From: a bacterium
Lineage (GTDB): Bacteria > Patescibacteriota > Microgenomatia > Levybacterales > UBA12049
Assembly (NCBI GenBank): GCA_021777565.1
Contig: JAJYDJ010000001.1
Location: forward strand, 160,142-224,141
Direction of reading: 5' to 3'
Length of the DNA: 64,000 bases
Positions within the stretch are counted from its first letter, which is position 1. Every line of letters starts with the position of its first letter. Below, one piece after another: positions 7,690-14,712 of this stretch. Made by a program: the position numbers and the translations under genes. The notes beneath the pieces are model-generated. The model saw only the letters and a program-made list of their open reading frames with translations. It made no database searches and was not told where the DNA came from.

Positions 7690-7719
7690 TTGACTTTACC
7701 TATTCCTGACGGCTATAAT
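7690..7719 (+). promoter_or_regulatory. sigma70-type promoter for 16S rRNA
   Basis: TTGACT (-35), 18-nt spacer, TATAAT (-10), about 125 nt upstream of the 16S 5' end. Confidence 0.55.
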
Positions 7720-7743
7720 ACAGGCACGACGTTTTTTACGTAG

Positions 7744-7754
7744 TTCTTTAACAA
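7744..7754 (+). promoter_or_regulatory. boxA-like rRNA antitermination element in the 16S leader
   Basis: GTTCTTTAACAA versus E. coli rrn boxA GCTCTTTAACAA (one mismatch), followed by leader hairpins (for example the AGTACTTTGCA...TGCAGAGTACT inverted repeat). Confidence 0.45.
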
Positions 7755-7845
7755 GAGAAGCGACACTTTAAATATACACACTTCTTGAAAGGCAAGAAGT
7801 GGTAGGAACCGTTAGTACTTTGCATACGTGCAGAGTACTTCCTTT

Positions 7846-9308
7846 TTTGAGAATTTGATCCTGGTTCAGGATGAACGCTGGCGGCGTGCCTTAAGCATGC
7901 AAGTCGAACGGGAAAAGTAGCAATACAATTCCAGTGGCGGACGGGTGAGTAACGCGTAGGAACCTACCTCAGAGCGGAGCATAGCTCATCGAAAGATGGG
8001 GTAATTCTCCATAGTCCCGCAAGGGTAAAGATGTAAATCACTTTGAGAGGGGCCTGCGTCCTATCAGCTAGTTGGCGGGGTAAATGCCCACCAAGGCAAT
8101 GACGGGTAGCCGGACTGAGAGGTTGATCGGCCACAACTGCACTGAGACACGGGCAGTACATCTACGGATGGCAGCAACTGGGAATCTTGCGCAATGGACG
8201 AAAGTCTGACGCAGCGACGCCGCGTGGAGGAAGAAGGTCCTCGGATCGTAAACTCCTTTTGATAGTCCTTTCACGGACTATAGAATAAGCCCTTACTAAC
8301 TACGTGCCAGAAGTCTCGGTAATGCGTAGGGGGCAAGCGTTATCCGGATTCATTGGGCGTAAAGTGTGCGTAGGCGGTTCTGTGTGTCTTGGTTGAAATC
8401 CTATGGCTTACCCATAGTTCCGATCAAGAAACTACAGAACTTGAGGATTGACAGGGGTGCTGGAACAGCTGGAGTAGTGATTAAATACGTTGATATCAGC
8501 TGGAACACCGATGGCGAAGGCAAGCACCTGGGTTTTTCTCTGACGCTGAGGCACGAAAGCTAGGGTAGCGAAACAGATTAGATACCTGTGTAGTCCTAGC
8601 CGTAAACGATGTCTGCTAAGTATTTCGTTTTTACGAAGTGCTGTAAGCTAACGCGTTAAGCAGACCGCCTGTGGAGTACGGCCGCAAGGCTAAAACATAA
8701 AGGAATTGACGGGGACCCGCACAACCAGTGGAGCGTGTGGTTCAATTCGAGACAAAACGAAGGACCTCACCAGGGTTTGACATGCTAGCGTCCTATTCTC
8801 TAGAAATAGAGGAAATTCGCAAGAAGGCTAGCACAGGTGTTGCATGGCTGTCGTCAGTTCGTGCCGTGAGGTGTTCCCTTAAGTGGGGAAACGAACGCAA
8901 CCCCCATCCAATGTTACATGATCATTGGAAACAGAGGACTCATTTTGAGTTAAGGAAGGAGGGGCAGATGTCAAGTCAGCATGGCCTTTATACCCTGGGC
9001 AACACACACACTACAATGGCGAAAAACAATGAGCAGCAAGCGCGCGAGTGCAAGCGAATCTCACAAATTTCGCCTCAGTTCAGATCGGAGTCTGCAACTC
9101 GACTCCGTGAAGCCGGAATTGGTAGTAATCGCAGGTCAGCAAACTGCGGTGAATACGTTCTCGGGTCTTGTACACACCGCCCGTCAAGGCAGCAAAGTCG
9201 GGAGTGGATGAATACTGGCAGTTCTGTCGGTAGAGTCCAAGTTCGGCGATGAGGCTTAAGTCGTAACAAGGTATCCCTAGCCGAAGCTGGGGATGGATCA
9301 CCTCCTTT
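7846..9308 (+). rRNA. rrs: 16S ribosomal RNA, about 1463 nt and compact
   Basis: 5' GAGAATTTGATCCTGGTTCAGGATGAACGCTGGCGGCGTGCC, internal GGATTAGATACC and TGTACACACCGCCCGTCA, 3' GGATCACCTCCTTT anti-SD. Universal primer sites are divergent: 515F site GTGCCAGAAGTCTCGGTAA, 341F site TCTACGGATGGCAGCAA. Confidence 0.95.
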
Positions 9309-9750
9309 CTAAATCAAATATATAGAGGTCTCTCCCGCAATCCTTAAGGGAGGGCATAGAAAAGCTTTTATATATGCCGAAAGAGAGAAGGTACGGAAAG
9401 TCTCGAGCAATCGAGATAAAAGTACACCCTCGTTGCAGATACGAGTATTGGCCCAAACCAATGAAAATCTGTATTTGTCCTACCACTTCTTGAAGTTCAA
9501 GAGTGTGTGTCGTTTCTCTGGAACTTTTAAAAACGTATGCAAAAAGATGGTCTTGTACAAATTCTTTCGGGACTTCTTCTCTTTATTCTCTGTTTCACAC
9601 TCATTTTTTTCTTCCCTAAGAGTCATCAGGATGTAGAAATTGGTAAAAGTGTTCTGCCTCTTCACGTGATCAAATAATTTAGCTTTGTAGTCAGAATACT
9701 GACAGAAATTTGGGTCACAGGTCTTCCCAGTGCTATAATGGCAGCTATCT

Positions 9751-10980
9751 ATGGGAAAAGAAAAGATTTATCTAGGATTTCTCTTGGGATTTTGGTTATT
9801 ACAGCTCCTTTGTGGTGCTGGGCTTCTCTATATCGTTGGTATTAATCAAAATGCGTTACTCTTGCAAGATATACAGTCACGGCTTCATGATGATGTTACG
9901 TATCGGGATGGGAAGTGGGATACATATCGCTATAATGCAGATCCTTCAGTCCCCGGGAATGCGTATTCTGTCTATATGATTACCACGGATGGATTTGTCA
10001 TCGAGAGATGGCATCCAATTCAGGGACTTCTTGATACTTCTGATTTTAAACATTTACTCCAATTACAAACTCCTCAAACAATCACAACTATCACTAATCA
10101 AACTTGGCGTGTCTTTTCATTGCCTATCCAACAATCGGGGAGTGTTATTGGTGTCATTACGGTCTCATCGTTTACCCCAACAGACATGGACATGGGACAA
10201 ATTGATAGTGCACTTGAGGACAATGCACATGTTATCCTTGATCATTTGACGGTAAAAAATGGCATTATCTCTGCACGAAACCTTGATGTCAGGGCGATCC
10301 CATACACACTTTCTTTTCAAGTGGTCAATCAATTTAATAAAATTATTGTCAAAAATAATAACTTTAATAGTATTGATCGCTTACCAAATTTTATTGATCC
10401 TAGTTATGTCGATAACGCACTGCATAGTCCACATGAGCGAGTGGTTGCAGATAGTCTCACGGGTGAACATTATTATGTTGTTACCTCAGCGCTTACTGAT
10501 GCCAAGGGGACAGTGCGTGGCGTGATAGTGGTGACAAAGTCGATTAGCTATCTCTATCATCTCTTACTCTGGTACTTCATTGGTCAGCTAGGCGTAGGCA
10601 TCTTGAGCAGTGTGGTGCTCTCATGGTATGTCACTCTACATCCACTCACCCCGGCAAAGGAGAAACCGCTCACCTTTGTTCACTTTGATAAAAAGACCTC
10701 GGTCCTTTCCTTGAATGAATTTGACATGGTTATCCCTTTCGCTACCAATCAATATTATCTTTGTGAGGCGATTTGTGCCCATCCAAAAAAGAAATGGGAG
10801 GTAGGGGAGCTACTTGATCGATTTGGGATTGAGGCGAGCAGTGAGAATGCCCGCAAAGTGTATGACGCGATGCTGCTTCTCAATAAGAAAATTATGACAG
10901 TACAATCAAAGCGTCTGGTGATGATGCAGGATAGACGATATTTCTGTAATCCAGAACTTGCCGCACTGATTTCTTCATAA
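9751..10980 (+). CDS. two-TM membrane protein with a ~250-aa extracytoplasmic domain (sensor-like, no output domain), hypothetical
   Basis: TM1 at residues 5-30 and TM2 near 270-295; TATAAT (-10) lies 12 nt upstream of the ATG. Confidence 0.45.
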   Translation: MGKEKIYLGFLLGFWLLQLLCGAGLLYIVGINQNALLLQDIQSRLHDDVTYRDGKWDTYRYNADPSVPGNAYSVYMITTDGFVIERWHPIQGLLDTSDFKHLLQLQTPQTITTITNQTWRVFSLPIQQSGSVIGVITVSSFTPTDMDMGQIDSALEDNAHVILDHLTVKNGIISARNLDVRAIPYTLSFQVVNQFNKIIVKNNNFNSIDRLPNFIDPSYVDNALHSPHERVVADSLTGEHYYVVTSALTDAKGTVRGVIVVTKSISYLYHLLLWYFIGQLGVGILSSVVLSWYVTLHPLTPAKEKPLTFVHFDKKTSVLSLNEFDMVIPFATNQYYLCEAICAHPKKKWEVGELLDRFGIEASSENARKVYDAMLLLNKKIMTVQSKRLVMMQDRRYFCNPELAALISS

Positions 10981-11035
10981 GCTGACTCCTTCGTGAGTAA
11001 CAGTGACTCACCTCACATTTAGTTATGCTAAAAGC

Positions 11036-11176
11036 ATGAAAAAAATAATGTGGGAGGTCGGTGCAGGGGTACTGTTAGTACTCTTGACTGTTTCTTTATA
11101 TCTGTGGCTTCCTGTCTCAAAAAATCAGGTGCAGTATGGAAGAACTGTTGTCCCTGTGCAATTACTTCAAAACTAA
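11036..11176 (+). CDS. possible small membrane protein (46 aa)
   Basis: ATG-initiated MKKIMWEVGAGVLLVLLTVSLYLWLP... with one TM helix, in an otherwise unexplained 180-nt gap. Below the ORF-track size cutoff. Confidence 0.2.
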   Translation: MKKIMWEVGAGVLLVLLTVSLYLWLPVSKNQVQYGRTVVPVQLLQN

Positions 11177-14140: not shown

Positions 14141-14216
14141 ACAAGTCTACTTCGGTCTTTCTAGTATATCAGGGGTTTTTGCCTGATGCAACGAACTTCC
14201 CACATAAGGCTGATTT

Positions 14217-14225
14217 TGTTATACT
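14217..14225 (+). promoter_or_regulatory. extended -10 promoter element upstream of tRNA-Cys
   Basis: TGtTATACT ending about 12 nt before the tRNA 5' end. Confidence 0.35.
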
Positions 14226-14237
14226 ACGTGTGTGTTT

Positions 14238-14309
14238 GGCGCGTTGGCGAAGTGGTAACGCAGGGGTCTGCAAAACCTCCATGCGCCGGTTCAATCCCGG
14301 CACGCGCCT
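14238..14309 (+). tRNA. tRNA-Cys(GCA)
   Basis: Manual cloverleaf: acceptor GGCGCGT/ACGCGCC, anticodon stem GGGGT/ACCTC, loop CTGCAAA (anticodon GCA), T-arm GCCGG-TTCAATC-CCGGC, discriminator U; no encoded CCA. Confidence 0.9.
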
Positions 14310-14352
14310 CAAACTCTTGGCTGAAAGGCACACTATTTGCTATAATGTGTCA

Positions 14353-14637
14353 ATGGGACGGATGGTGGAAAATGGAGCATATGCTCCACACCAAGAATTT
14401 GTGCAAACTGATGACGGATTTAGCGAATCCAAATTGAGGAAGCGAACAGAGACGGCACAGTCTCAAACAGATCCTCAGTTGGATGAACTCATCCTTCTGT
14501 CCCAAACGCTCACAAGTCTTTTGGAGCATTATCGATCACTACTTGTGACCGATCTGCACCAGGCAGCGAGAGTCCGAGAAGAAATCGCTCGTACTAAAGC
14601 ACGACTTGAAGAGCTATTTCAGACGATTGGAACATAA
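14353..14637 (+). CDS. hypothetical small helical protein (94 aa) between two tRNA genes
   Basis: ATG just after a TATAAT; coding-like, charged/helical composition. The upstream part of track ORF 14179-14637 overlaps the tRNA and is rejected. Confidence 0.3.
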   Translation: MGRMVENGAYAPHQEFVQTDDGFSESKLRKRTETAQSQTDPQLDELILLSQTLTSLLEHYRSLLVTDLHQAARVREEIARTKARLEELFQTIGT

Positions 14638-14640
14638 TGC

Positions 14641-14712
14641 GGGCGCATGGCTCAGTGGTAGAGCGCGTTCCTGATAAGAACGAGGTCCTTGGTCCGATCC
14701 CAAGTGCGCCCA
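14641..14712 (+). tRNA. tRNA-Ile(GAU)
   Basis: Acceptor GGGCGCA/TGCGCCC, D-arm GCTCAGTGGTAGAGC, anticodon loop CTGATAA (GAU), T-arm CTTGG-TCCGATC-CCAAG, discriminator A. Confidence 0.9.

Follow-up and report, generated by a model that had tools for sequence, protein, structure and literature searches.

The 64-kb window, that is, the whole stretch of DNA analysed, comes from an ultra-small bacterium of the Candidate Phyla Radiation (CPR/Patescibacteria), of Microgenomatia type, and shows an intact 16S rRNA gene of 1466 nt, without insertions, at 7843-9308 (+). It matches Rfam model RF00177 (bacterial SSU rRNA) over its full length, with 1335.7 bits across model positions 1-1533, in agreement with the sequence-only reading, which had placed the gene at 7846-9308, and its anti-Shine-Dalgarno end is intact. 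Upstream, at 7690-7719 (+), the 16S unit has a sigma-70-type promoter match, TTGACT-18 nt-TATAAT; it agrees at 11 of 12 positions and is the best match within 7400-15200, as expected from the strong promoter previously claimed for this gene. Promoter-like matches as a class are not enriched in the region (17, against 13.4 +/- 3.1 expected from shuffled sequence). Transcription would start near 7725-7727, where the leader helix described below starts. The leader contains a boxA-like element, AGTTCTTTAACAA, at 7742-7754 (+), with two mismatches to the E. coli rrn boxA TGCTCTTTAACAA. Window-wide, boxA-like matches are not significant (four found, 2.8 expected). What makes this one credible is where it sits, in the leader, and the fact that most relatives have GCWCTTTRACAA in their 16S leaders; the antitermination element noted earlier thus stands as a leader element conserved across the lineage. 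Just 5' of the 16S start, the inner leader shows a local hairpin at 7814-7839 (+), with 11 pairs and then a T run, which scored as terminator-like and is also formed in the MFE fold.

The 16S gene is followed by a trailer of 442 nt (9309-9750) with a G+C content of 38.9%, against 43.6% for the window; the length of the AT-rich spacer of 440 nt described before holds, and its AT-richness is only mild. The proposed Rfam scan of 9309-9750 gave no match at E <= 5. The inner trailer, 169 nt at 9309-9477 (+), contains two blocks common to the nearest relatives, AAAGAGAGAAGGTACGG (9380-9396) and AAGTACACC (9420-9428), and a hairpin comes after each of them; in the one at 9429-9445 pairing is kept by compensatory changes in seven relatives, as read by eye. 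The last part, 9541-9750 (+), is a T-rich spacer ending in the extended -10 element TGCTATAAT (9731-9739) of the next gene. Since no convincing intrinsic terminator was found on the plus strand between the trailer arm and this gene (9541-9750), read-through from the strong 16S promoter may reach it. The protein-coding gene expected after the spacer encodes a 409-aa membrane protein with a Cache-like domain (9751-10980, +; PF23846, E = 1.2e-6). Three genes on the opposite strand come next: a CitMHS-family transporter (11162-12433, -; PF03600, E = 2.4e-27) and two family-2 glycosyltransferases (GT2) at 12452-13252 (-) and 13277-14140 (-).

Between the inner trailer and the T-rich spacer, the sequence 9478-9540 (+) is complementary to the leader at 7724-7807 (+). 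This complementarity, first detected as an inverted repeat, gives a helix of 56 pairs (23 GC, 31 AU and 2 GU) that takes up almost the whole leader and encloses the 16S alone. The duplex energy is -93.3 kcal/mol, against -51.7 +/- 4.6 in 200 shuffles, and the helix contains a perfect run of 15 bp, where 100 shuffles gave no more than 10 bp. The leader strand shows a conserved core, GTGGTAGGA, at 7799-7807, and the trailer strand its counterpart, TCCTACCAC, at 9478-9486. Across 32 related loci the helix is conserved with compensatory changes: 91.2% of the cells are paired (77.1 +/- 0.9 in shuffles), and compensatory changes occur at 16 of the 22 pairs, above all 500 shuffles, in an alignment anchored on the sequence-conserved core, where the independent covariation evidence comes from the flanking columns only. 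In slid registers only 38-56% is paired. Of 105 loci, 74 have the trailer motif in the 400 nt that follow the 16S (5 of 105 in the shuffled control), at a median position of +154 nt, and the motif comes before the first tRNA in each of 17 loci. By analogy with known rRNA operons, the helix would be the expected pre-16S processing stem of the RNase III type. The trailer, previously left without an assigned function, therefore carries the 3' strand of a conserved, putative processing helix as well as further conserved blocks.

Metagenome assemblies often break at rRNA genes, and two contigs of assembly ERZ27233572 do break within this 16S gene (L179 ends at window position 8185 and L057 begins at 9254), as might be seen if the 16S had been chimerically joined within 9300-9750 in a genome with a normal 16S-23S operon. 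However, the check for a chimeric join revealed the same sequence across the 16S, the trailer and the next gene in contigs of three separate ENA assemblies, with 99.98-99.99% identity: the 953-kb contig k141_2336031 of ERZ27236897, the 12.2-kb contig L180 of ERZ27236866, which contains window positions 1-10571 unbroken across the join, and L057, which also covers it. Furthermore, the trailer pairs with the leader of its own 16S over 56 bp, which a chimera upstream of 9541 would not give, and the unlinked layout is also found in nearly all of the 71 relatives with sufficient downstream sequence. Such an artefact is extremely unlikely.

Rfam and ARAGORN revealed no 23S, 5S or tRNA-Ala in the window, blastn with the 23S of two relatives as queries gave nothing in it, and none of these genes is present in about 9 kb beyond either window end, taken from the 953-kb source contig. 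In all, the search covered about 82 kb of this contig, from 16.8 kb upstream to 63 kb downstream of the 16S, and the absence of these genes after the 16S, already claimed, extends over that whole interval. The half of the operon containing tRNA-Ala-23S-5S is thus located over 63 kb downstream or over 16.8 kb upstream of the 16S. Relatives show independent promoters ahead of tRNA-Ala-23S, from which the 23S unit of this genome would be predicted to have its own promoter and boxA-like element. As the view is limited to those 82 kb, the 16S could be an extra copy in a genome with a complete 16S-23S-5S operon elsewhere. Against this, the gene is full-length with an intact 3' end, it has the strongest promoter match of the region, and its boxA and processing-helix elements are conserved in the lineage. 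The 953-kb contig was assembled straight through the 16S, as would hardly be expected of a repeated rRNA copy, and one rRNA copy is typical of CPR genomes. Published circular Microgenomatia genomes (Lui, Nielsen & Arkin 2021, PMC8172020) are unlinked, with 16S-23S distances of 2.9-309 kb. An extra copy is very unlikely.

Beyond the opposite-strand genes, tRNA-Cys(GCA) is located at 14238-14310 (+; ARAGORN, Rfam 61.2 bits) and tRNA-Ile(GAU) at 14641-14714 (+; ARAGORN, Rfam 65.6 bits), 4.9 and 5.33 kb from the 16S 3' end, respectively, and on the same strand. Between them lies ORF94 (14353-14637, +), which encodes a small predicted helical protein of 94 aa and whose stop is 3 nt before tRNA-Ile; it was an orphan in a search of 5.8 billion proteins, and relatives have at this position a conserved family of small proteins to which it shows only weak similarity. 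Two promoter-like sites with extended -10 elements are present here: TTCCCA-17-TGTTATACT at 14197-14225 (+) for tRNA-Cys, and TTGGCT-18-TGCTATAAT at 14317-14346 (+), 6 nt before the ORF94 ATG. The sequence-only reading was right on the displaced tRNA-Ile, about 5.3 kb downstream beside tRNA-Cys and a small ORF, but its TGnTATACT element is TGTTATACT at 14217-14225, 12 nt ahead of tRNA-Cys, which it serves instead of tRNA-Ile. Each tRNA would now be under its own extended -10 promoter, and tRNA-Ile is probably co-transcribed with ORF94 directly upstream.

Several observations could fit one antiterminated transcript that runs from the 16S promoter across the inserted genes as far as tRNA-Cys and tRNA-Ile: the 16S and both tRNAs share a strand, a boxA-like antitermination element is present in the leader, the trailer helix is not followed by a clear terminator, and Lui et al. 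(PMC8172020) count some CPR operons as operonic by tRNAs and ORFs. However, about 3 kb of the interval consists of the three opposite-strand genes (11162-14140), and the plus strand shows only three extended -10 elements in 7.6 kb, one for each downstream unit. In addition, 23 of 51 relatives have one or both of these tRNAs on the other strand from the 16S; therefore, co-transcription of 16S and tRNAs is not a conserved requirement. A single long transcript is highly improbable.

The comparison set contains 71 non-redundant relatives, with 16S 74-88% identical and at least 1.5 kb of downstream sequence. Only one of them shows a 23S within 1.5 kb downstream, and 60 show tRNA-Cys and/or tRNA-Ile after the 16S, 0.14-6 kb off and in any orientation. 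Where 5 kb or more of downstream sequence is available (33 relatives), tRNA-Cys/tRNA-Ile are present in 31 and the 23S in five. No other tRNA species was found after the 16S, the order is Cys then Ile in all 28 loci with both tRNAs on the 16S strand, and tRNA-Ala(UGC) is always 180-390 nt before the 23S. Where the 23S is in view, the order is 16S ... Ile ... Ala-23S. Compact forms are present among near and distant relatives: L136 shows 16S-232 nt-Cys-25 nt-Ile, and L124 shows 16S-Cys-Ile-4.9 kb-Ala-23S-5S. Rather than being a peculiarity of this genome, the unlinked arrangement is the norm for the lineage, and tRNA-Cys(GCA) and tRNA-Ile share one conserved neighbourhood.

The tRNAs could also be near the 16S by coincidence, never having been in an rRNA operon: three opposite-strand genes stand between, tRNA-Cys is not a usual spacer tRNA and the orientation of the tRNAs relative to the 16S varies in relatives. 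However, a single tRNA-Ile(GAU) in about 0.95 Mb would be on the same strand and within 5.3 kb downstream with an estimated chance of roughly 0.3%, and the recurrence of these two tRNAs alone, the compact forms and the order up to the 23S argue against it. With tRNA-Cys and/or tRNA-Ile after the 16S in 60 of 71 relatives, the proximity is therefore inherited from an ancestral spacer and not due to chance, and coincidence is most improbable. The layout of the relatives shows tRNA-Cys and tRNA-Ile as what is left of the spacer half next to the 16S, tRNA-Ile being the putative remnant of an ancestral 16S-Cys-Ile...Ala-23S spacer invaded by protein genes.

Homologues of the GT2 genes are found 3' of the 16S in six loci: directly after it in L168, L157 and L081, and between 16S and tRNA-Cys wherever tRNA-Cys is in view (L078, L083 and L075), with two GT2 genes likewise in the L078 spacer. 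The Cache-domain gene has no homologue in any related 16S-downstream region, nor has the CitMHS transporter in related loci. Beyond tRNA-Ile, the gene at 15164-16003 has homologues in L078, L096, L135 and L133. Synteny shows that two GT2 genes entered between 16S and tRNA-Cys in a sub-lineage, and that the Cache-domain and CitMHS genes are present in addition in this genome only, among the loci compared; together the inserted genes displace the tRNAs 4.9-5.3 kb from the 16S.

The broken rrn operon with a separately transcribed 16S and a displaced tRNA-Ile, as first proposed, is upheld by the 16S's own promoter match, the boxA-like element, the helix around the 16S only and the tRNAs behind opposite-strand genes. 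We consider it highly probable that the locus is a split operon, with a stand-alone 16S unit, a processing helix, tRNAs left from the ancestral spacer and the 23S elsewhere. The ancestral rrn operon of the lineage would have been pulled apart through insertion of protein genes into its spacers. The 16S would be transcribed alone from the promoter at 7690-7719 through the boxA-like element at 7742-7754; RNase III-type cleavage at the helix, by analogy with E. coli and other bacteria, would release the pre-16S RNA, and the inner trailer of 169 nt, with its conserved blocks and hairpins, would be trimmed afterwards.

E. coli-type rrn operons contain a boxA, for Nus-factor antitermination, in leader and spacer, and an RNase III processing stem around the 16S. 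The present locus resembles them in the succession of promoter, boxA-like element (which shares 11 of 13 positions with TGCTCTTTAACAA) and long helix between leader and 16S 3' side, and in the helix 3' strand lying ahead of the spacer tRNA(s). It differs in a longer helix (56 bp) that is predicted to start essentially at the transcript 5' end, in a helix 3' strand about 170 nt after the 16S instead of about 30 nt, in a boxA-like element within the helix strand and in the lack of a 23S after the 16S; Nus-factor binding and RNase III cleavage would apply here by analogy. As in the canonical 16S-tRNA-Ile(GAU)-tRNA-Ala(UGC)-23S spacer, tRNA-Ile(GAU) is downstream of the 16S on the same strand, and relatives keep tRNA-Ala(UGC) close before the 23S. 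In contrast, in this lineage tRNA-Cys(GCA) precedes tRNA-Ile, an order for which we know of no description in a bacterial spacer, the tRNAs are often inverted, and protein genes lie between 16S, tRNAs and 23S. Split rRNA operons are known in Thermus/Deinococcus, Rickettsiales, Helicobacter, Borrelia, Buchnera and Dehalococcoidia, likewise with a stand-alone 16S unit with its own promoter and 23S-5S as a second unit elsewhere. Unlike those, this lineage shows many intermediates (tRNA spacers of 0.14-6 kb; 23S at 1.1-6.4 kb or much further), and the tRNA-Cys/tRNA-Ile pair remains with the 16S and tRNA-Ala with the 23S. The available parts of Brewer et al. (bioRxiv 10.1101/705046; ISME J 2020), where Patescibacteria are named as a clade of unlinked taxa, and of Lui et al. 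(PMC8172020) classify by distance and strand, and contain no description of the leader-trailer helix, the boxA-like element or the constant tRNA-Cys/tRNA-Ile neighbourhood; the last was also not found in full-text literature searching and may be undescribed so far. The split 16S/23S layout itself is already published for CPR/Microgenomatia, and the present case, in a genome likewise small (contig of 0.95 Mb), is an ordinary and well supported one, with no difference in kind from the published unlinked CPR rRNA genes.

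The 16S rRNA gene is intact and full-length (7843-9308, + strand; Rfam RF00177, 1335.7 bits, model positions 1-1533), within 3 nt of the limits given by the sequence-only reading (7846-9308), and four protein genes separate it from the next tRNA gene. The first encodes a 409-aa membrane protein with a Cache-like domain (9751-10980, + strand), and the other three, between 11162 and 14140, are on the opposite strand and encode a CitMHS transporter (11162-12433) and two family-2 glycosyltransferases, GT2 (12452-13252 and 13277-14140). Downstream of these genes, ARAGORN locates tRNA-Cys(GCA) (14238-14310) and tRNA-Ile(GAU) (14641-14714), both on the + strand; the latter, on the same strand as the 16S gene, is 5.3 kb past it. 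The 64-kb window contains four tRNA genes in total, the remaining two being tRNA-His (18942-19016, + strand) and tRNA-Leu(CAA) (43878-43961, - strand), and tRNA-Ala is absent from both the window and its extensions. Neither 23S nor 5S has an Rfam match anywhere in the 64 kb, and the 23S and 5S sequences of relatives, used as blastn queries, find no match either in the window or in its extensions, about 9 kb at each end, which show densely packed protein genes only, with no 23S, 5S or tRNA. This search reaches about 82 kb of the 953-kb contig and puts the nearest 23S gene at a distance of over 63 kb on the downstream side or over 16.8 kb on the upstream side: the 1.5-2 kb that follow 16S contain none, and the clear range extends from -16.8 kb to +63 kb. 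The canonical spacer, in which tRNA-Ala(UGC) and 23S are co-transcribed after 16S, is not present, and the CitMHS and GT2 genes of the - strand intervene. The proposal of a broken rrn operon with a separately transcribed 16S gene, followed by no tRNA-Ala, 23S or 5S and with tRNA-Ile about 5.3 kb away beside tRNA-Cys and a small ORF, is therefore supported, with amendments on the trailer, on tRNA-Cys and on what is normal for the lineage.

A misassembly between 9300 and 9750 would produce the same picture, and the sequence-only reading had raised it. The protein of 9751-10980 is encoded on five contigs of public assemblies, and three assemblies show the same join: a 953,194-bp contig (ENA ERZ27236897:k141_2336031, with window position x at contig position 859292 - x) matches the window at 99.995%, a 12.2-kb contig of ERZ27236866 covers window positions 1-10571 and thereby takes in the upstream genes, all of 16S, the trailer and the beginning of the gene that follows, and a contig of ERZ27233572 begins inside the 3' end of 16S (window 9254) and runs through the trailer to 20980. 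Since three assemblies share the join and the trailer is complementary to the leader of its own gene, a chimeric junction in this interval is very unlikely.

Related loci were collected by scanning a metagenome collection with a lineage-specific 16S helix-45 pattern, which gave 120 loci; their 16S genes share 74-88% identity with that of the window over long overlaps. They were oriented with 16S on the + strand, tRNAs were located by ARAGORN and 23S by blastn with two Rfam-confirmed 23S queries; with three near-duplicates removed, the available sequence extends 1.5 kb or more beyond 16S in 71 loci. Only one of these 71 has a 23S gene within 1.5 kb of 16S (L170, at 1149 nt; its tRNA-Ile lies on the other strand). 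A 23S gene is in view in eight, at 1.1-6.4 kb, each with tRNA-Ala(UGC) 180-390 nt upstream of it. tRNA-Cys(GCA) and/or tRNA-Ile(GAU) follow 16S in 60 of the 71 loci. Where 5 kb or more is available after 16S (33 loci), tRNA-Cys/tRNA-Ile are present in 31 and 23S in five. No other tRNA species is found after 16S in the relatives, save tRNA-Ala(UGC) upstream of 23S. The view of tRNA-Ile as a displaced spacer tRNA holds with one correction, that tRNA-Cys belongs with it in the 16S neighbourhood. The 51 loci with both tRNAs show four orientations relative to 16S: ++ in 28 (always Cys before Ile), -- in 14, -+ in eight and +- in one. The distance from 16S to the first tRNA ranges from 140 to 5973 nt (median 789 nt), and tRNA-Ile is as distant from 16S as in the window in only two of the 60 loci. 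Compact forms are present among distant and nearer relatives alike: L136 shows 16S-232 nt-Cys-25 nt-Ile, L124 shows 16S-171-Cys-36-Ile-4.9 kb-Ala-23S-5S, and further ones are L130, L093, L151, L160 and L158.

Eight loci (L124, L076, L152, L145, L170, L108, L080 and L144) share a set of elements ahead of 23S, in the region 150-250 nt upstream of tRNA-Ala-23S. The first is a near-consensus promoter, TTGACA-N17-TAtTAT, followed by a short 5' hairpin with compensatory changes and then by a possible ORF of 13-17 codons starting ATGAGA. A GC-rich hairpin with a T run lies directly before tRNA-Ala, and a boxA-like GCWCTTTGAAAA lies between tRNA-Ala and 23S. This set may be the leader element of a separate 23S unit.

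The 16S gene of the window has its own upstream signals. The top sigma-70 match of the region is at 7690-7719 (TTGACT-18-TATAAT, 11 of 12 positions), and 23 nt past it begins a boxA-like AGTTCTTTAACAA (7742-7754), between promoter and 16S, with two mismatches to the 13-mer of the E. coli rrn boxA. The pattern is not significant window-wide (four found, 2.8 expected); nevertheless, the boxA call is sound, because most related loci have a boxA-like GCWCTTTRACAA in their 16S leaders, and it is also found ahead of their 23S genes. Its role in antitermination is putative. Many relatives (L151, L158, L142, L167, L093, L064 and L124) also have a GC-rich hairpin and T run 20-60 nt before the boxA-like element, inside the 16S leader or just ahead of it, which resembles an intrinsic terminator or boxB-like hairpin; the window counterpart, at 7729-7741, is weak.

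The region downstream of 16S (9309-9750), to which no function had been assigned, pairs with the leader. Leader 7724-7807 and trailer 9478-9540 form 56 intermolecular pairs (23 GC, 31 AU and 2 GU) with a cofold energy of -74 kcal/mol; the RNAduplex energy of the helix is -93.3 kcal/mol, compared with -51.7 +/- 4.6 when the trailer is shuffled (200 shuffles), and its longest perfect run is 15 bp, where 100 shuffles reach 10 bp at most. 16S is the only gene inside the helix, whose start lies within a few nucleotides of the inferred start of transcription. Both the leader motif GTGGTAGGA and the trailer motif TCCTACCAC are present in 34 loci with both flanks available. RNAduplex on the long leader and trailer segments of the relatives gave noisy z-scores and was replaced by longest-helix statistics and an anchored covariation count, for which both helix arms of 32 loci were aligned without gaps and the pairs counted. 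In this alignment 91.2% of the cells are paired, against 77.1 +/- 0.9 with partners shuffled and 38-56% in shifted registers, and compensatory double changes occur at 16 of 22 helix pairs, a number reached in none of 500 shuffles; as the alignment is anchored on a conserved 9-nt core, independent evidence comes from the flanking columns only, and these covary, for example AGAAGTGG/CCACTTCT, AAATGTGG/CCACATTT and GATAGTGG/CCACTATC. The inner 15-bp helix is 98.5% paired and has nine covarying pairs. The trailer motif lies within 400 nt past 16S in 74 of 105 loci (5 of 105 in the shuffled control; median +154 nt) and precedes the tRNA in all 17 loci with a tRNA within 400 nt, which is where the 3' strand of a classical pre-16S processing stem is expected. 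Leader pairing and compensatory changes identify the trailer as the 3' half of a conserved, predicted processing structure, with putative RNase III-type cleavage, and not as a functionless spacer.

The inner trailer (9309-9477) contains two blocks common to the nearest relatives, AAAGAGAGAAGGTACGG (9380-9396) and AAGTACACC (9420-9428), each followed by a hairpin whose arms change compensatorily between loci. RNAalifold predicts no structure on the inner-trailer sequences, because MAFFT is unable to align the variable hairpins. Rfam at E <= 5 matches only the rRNA and the tRNAs in the trailer and tRNA region, and the scan proposed for trailer or ncRNA elements returned no such family, the inner trailer included. 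No convincing terminator was found after the leader-trailer helix.

On the + strand of 7600-15200 there are only three extended -10 elements (TGnTAnAnT). One, at 9731-9739, precedes the start codon (ATG) of the Cache-domain gene by 11 nt; the second, at 14217-14225, precedes tRNA-Cys by 12 nt; the third, at 14338-14346, precedes by 6 nt the start codon (ATG) of ORF94, a 94-aa ORF (14353-14637, + strand) whose stop codon is 3 nt upstream of tRNA-Ile. As one such element precedes each unit, the Cache-domain gene, tRNA-Cys and ORF94 each appear to have their own promoter, and tRNA-Ile is probably made from the ORF94-tRNA transcript. The short distance of 6-12 nt between the end of the element and the gene start suggests leaderless or near-leaderless mRNAs for the Cache-domain gene and ORF94. 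Nine relatives (L078, L096, L117, L133, L135, L146, L155, L158 and L169) show, between tRNA-Cys and tRNA-Ile and on the tRNA strand, a gene for a conserved protein of about 120 aa (consensus ...GFSEKELDLDIEIRAGEWQNLKKFKTYQKRSRQGKIIATYQAVSNRLNQLV...EVWDLIE; pairwise E-values 1e-16 to 1e-23), for which Pfam gives no credible match. ORF94 occupies the same place and is weakly similar: blastp against the L078 protein gives a weak match, with E = 0.002 in a tiny database. Its membership of the family is unproven, with a probability of 6% by hhalign against the family profile, no tblastn match at E < 1e-4 in the relatives, and itself as the sole match among 5.8 billion proteins, that is, an orphan.

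The nearest relative with long flanks, L078, whose 16S is 88% identical, has homologues of both GT2 genes between 16S and tRNA-Cys. GT2 homologues are also found in this spacer in L083 and L075, and directly after 16S in L168, L157 and L081, where tRNA-Cys is out of view. The gene at 15164-16003 has homologues in L078, L096, L135 and L133, situated there on the far side of tRNA-Ile. None of the related spacers contains a counterpart of the Cache-domain or the CitMHS gene. From this distribution, the window combines an older glycosyltransferase insertion with a further insertion of 2.7 kb specific to its own lineage. The simplest reading of the compared loci is an ancestral 16S-Cys-Ile-Ala-23S-5S operon whose main break would lie between tRNA-Ile and tRNA-Ala and whose spacers repeatedly gained genes and local inversions. 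The related loci form a graded series of stages in this break-up, in which the promoter, boxA, the enclosing helix and tRNA-Cys/tRNA-Ile are kept with 16S, and tRNA-Ala, a second promoter and a second boxA are kept with 23S. The grouping of 16S, tRNA-Cys and tRNA-Ile persists despite the departure of 23S, the insertion of protein genes and many tRNA inversions, and in one sub-lineage the gene for the conserved protein of about 120 aa stands between its two tRNAs. It might be held by selection across Microgenomatia-like CPR bacteria, rather than being the slow decay of an ancestral order, an explanation we consider rather doubtful; if true, 16S and the two tRNAs would be functionally coupled in some way besides co-transcription, for instance through common regulation or their place on the chromosome, and tRNA-Cys would be a lineage-specific ancestral spacer tRNA. 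Further along the window, the gene at 16024-16968 strongly matches the 5-hmdU DNA kinase helical domain (PF18723, E = 2.4e-101), a family that is part of thymidine-hypermodification pathways best known from phages; here this phage-associated type of gene resides in a CPR chromosome.

The DnaB encoded at 3871-5205 has its best identity, 56-58%, to DnaB of Collierbacteria, Woesebacteria and Daviesbacteria MAGs, and the organism is a Microgenomatia-type CPR bacterium without a close representative in the species-level genome set. Among 55 genome loci with 10-kb flanks, from these MAGs and others and with DnaB at most 58% identical, none shows 16S near DnaB, so the upstream context is not conserved. 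The 16S gene itself is short (1466 nt), without large insertion or intron, and has a divergent 530 loop (8304-8323), with GTGCCAGAAGTCTCGGTAAT in place of the near-universal GTGCCAGCAGCCGCGGTAAT. The heptamer of this loop in the relatives is AAGTCTC in 26, CAGTCGC in 10, AAGCCTC in five and the canonical CAGCCGC in only two, and its first and sixth variable positions covary (A..T or C..G); because of this variant sequence, 515F-type primers would miss the lineage. Several related 16S genes (L069, L071, L130, L110, L173, L144 and others) measure 2.1-3.2 kb between conserved ends, which implies that they carry large insertions or introns, as is known for CPR bacteria, and the 23S gene of L124 is 4.7 kb long.

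Neither a full-text literature search nor the available text of the Brewer and Lui papers yielded the constant association of 16S with tRNA-Cys and tRNA-Ile, the leader-trailer helix conserved around its core GTGGTAGGA or the small protein family between the two tRNAs, a search whose scope is no proof of the novelty of any of them; the literature search likewise gave nothing relevant on tRNA-Cys as a bacterial 16S-23S spacer tRNA or on this tRNA in Microgenomates. These three are modest descriptive additions, of a detail useful for studies of rRNA maturation in reduced genomes. The layout confirms that typing based on ITS or on full-operon (16S-ITS-23S) amplicons is unworkable for the lineage. 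According to the available text of each source, Patescibacteria are among the clades with exclusively unlinked rRNA genes, defined by more than 1500 bp between 16S and 23S (Brewer et al., bioRxiv 10.1101/705046), and 27 of 34 circularised CPR genomes are unlinked, defined by more than 2000 bp with intervening opposite-strand genes, with 16S-23S distances in Microgenomatia from 1.7 kb to 309 kb (Lui, Nielsen and Arkin, PMC8172020). As CPR bacteria are already known to have unlinked rRNA genes, the current picture is unchanged: by either published definition the window is unlinked, its layout is the norm of its lineage, and the locus is an ordinary case of an arrangement already published.
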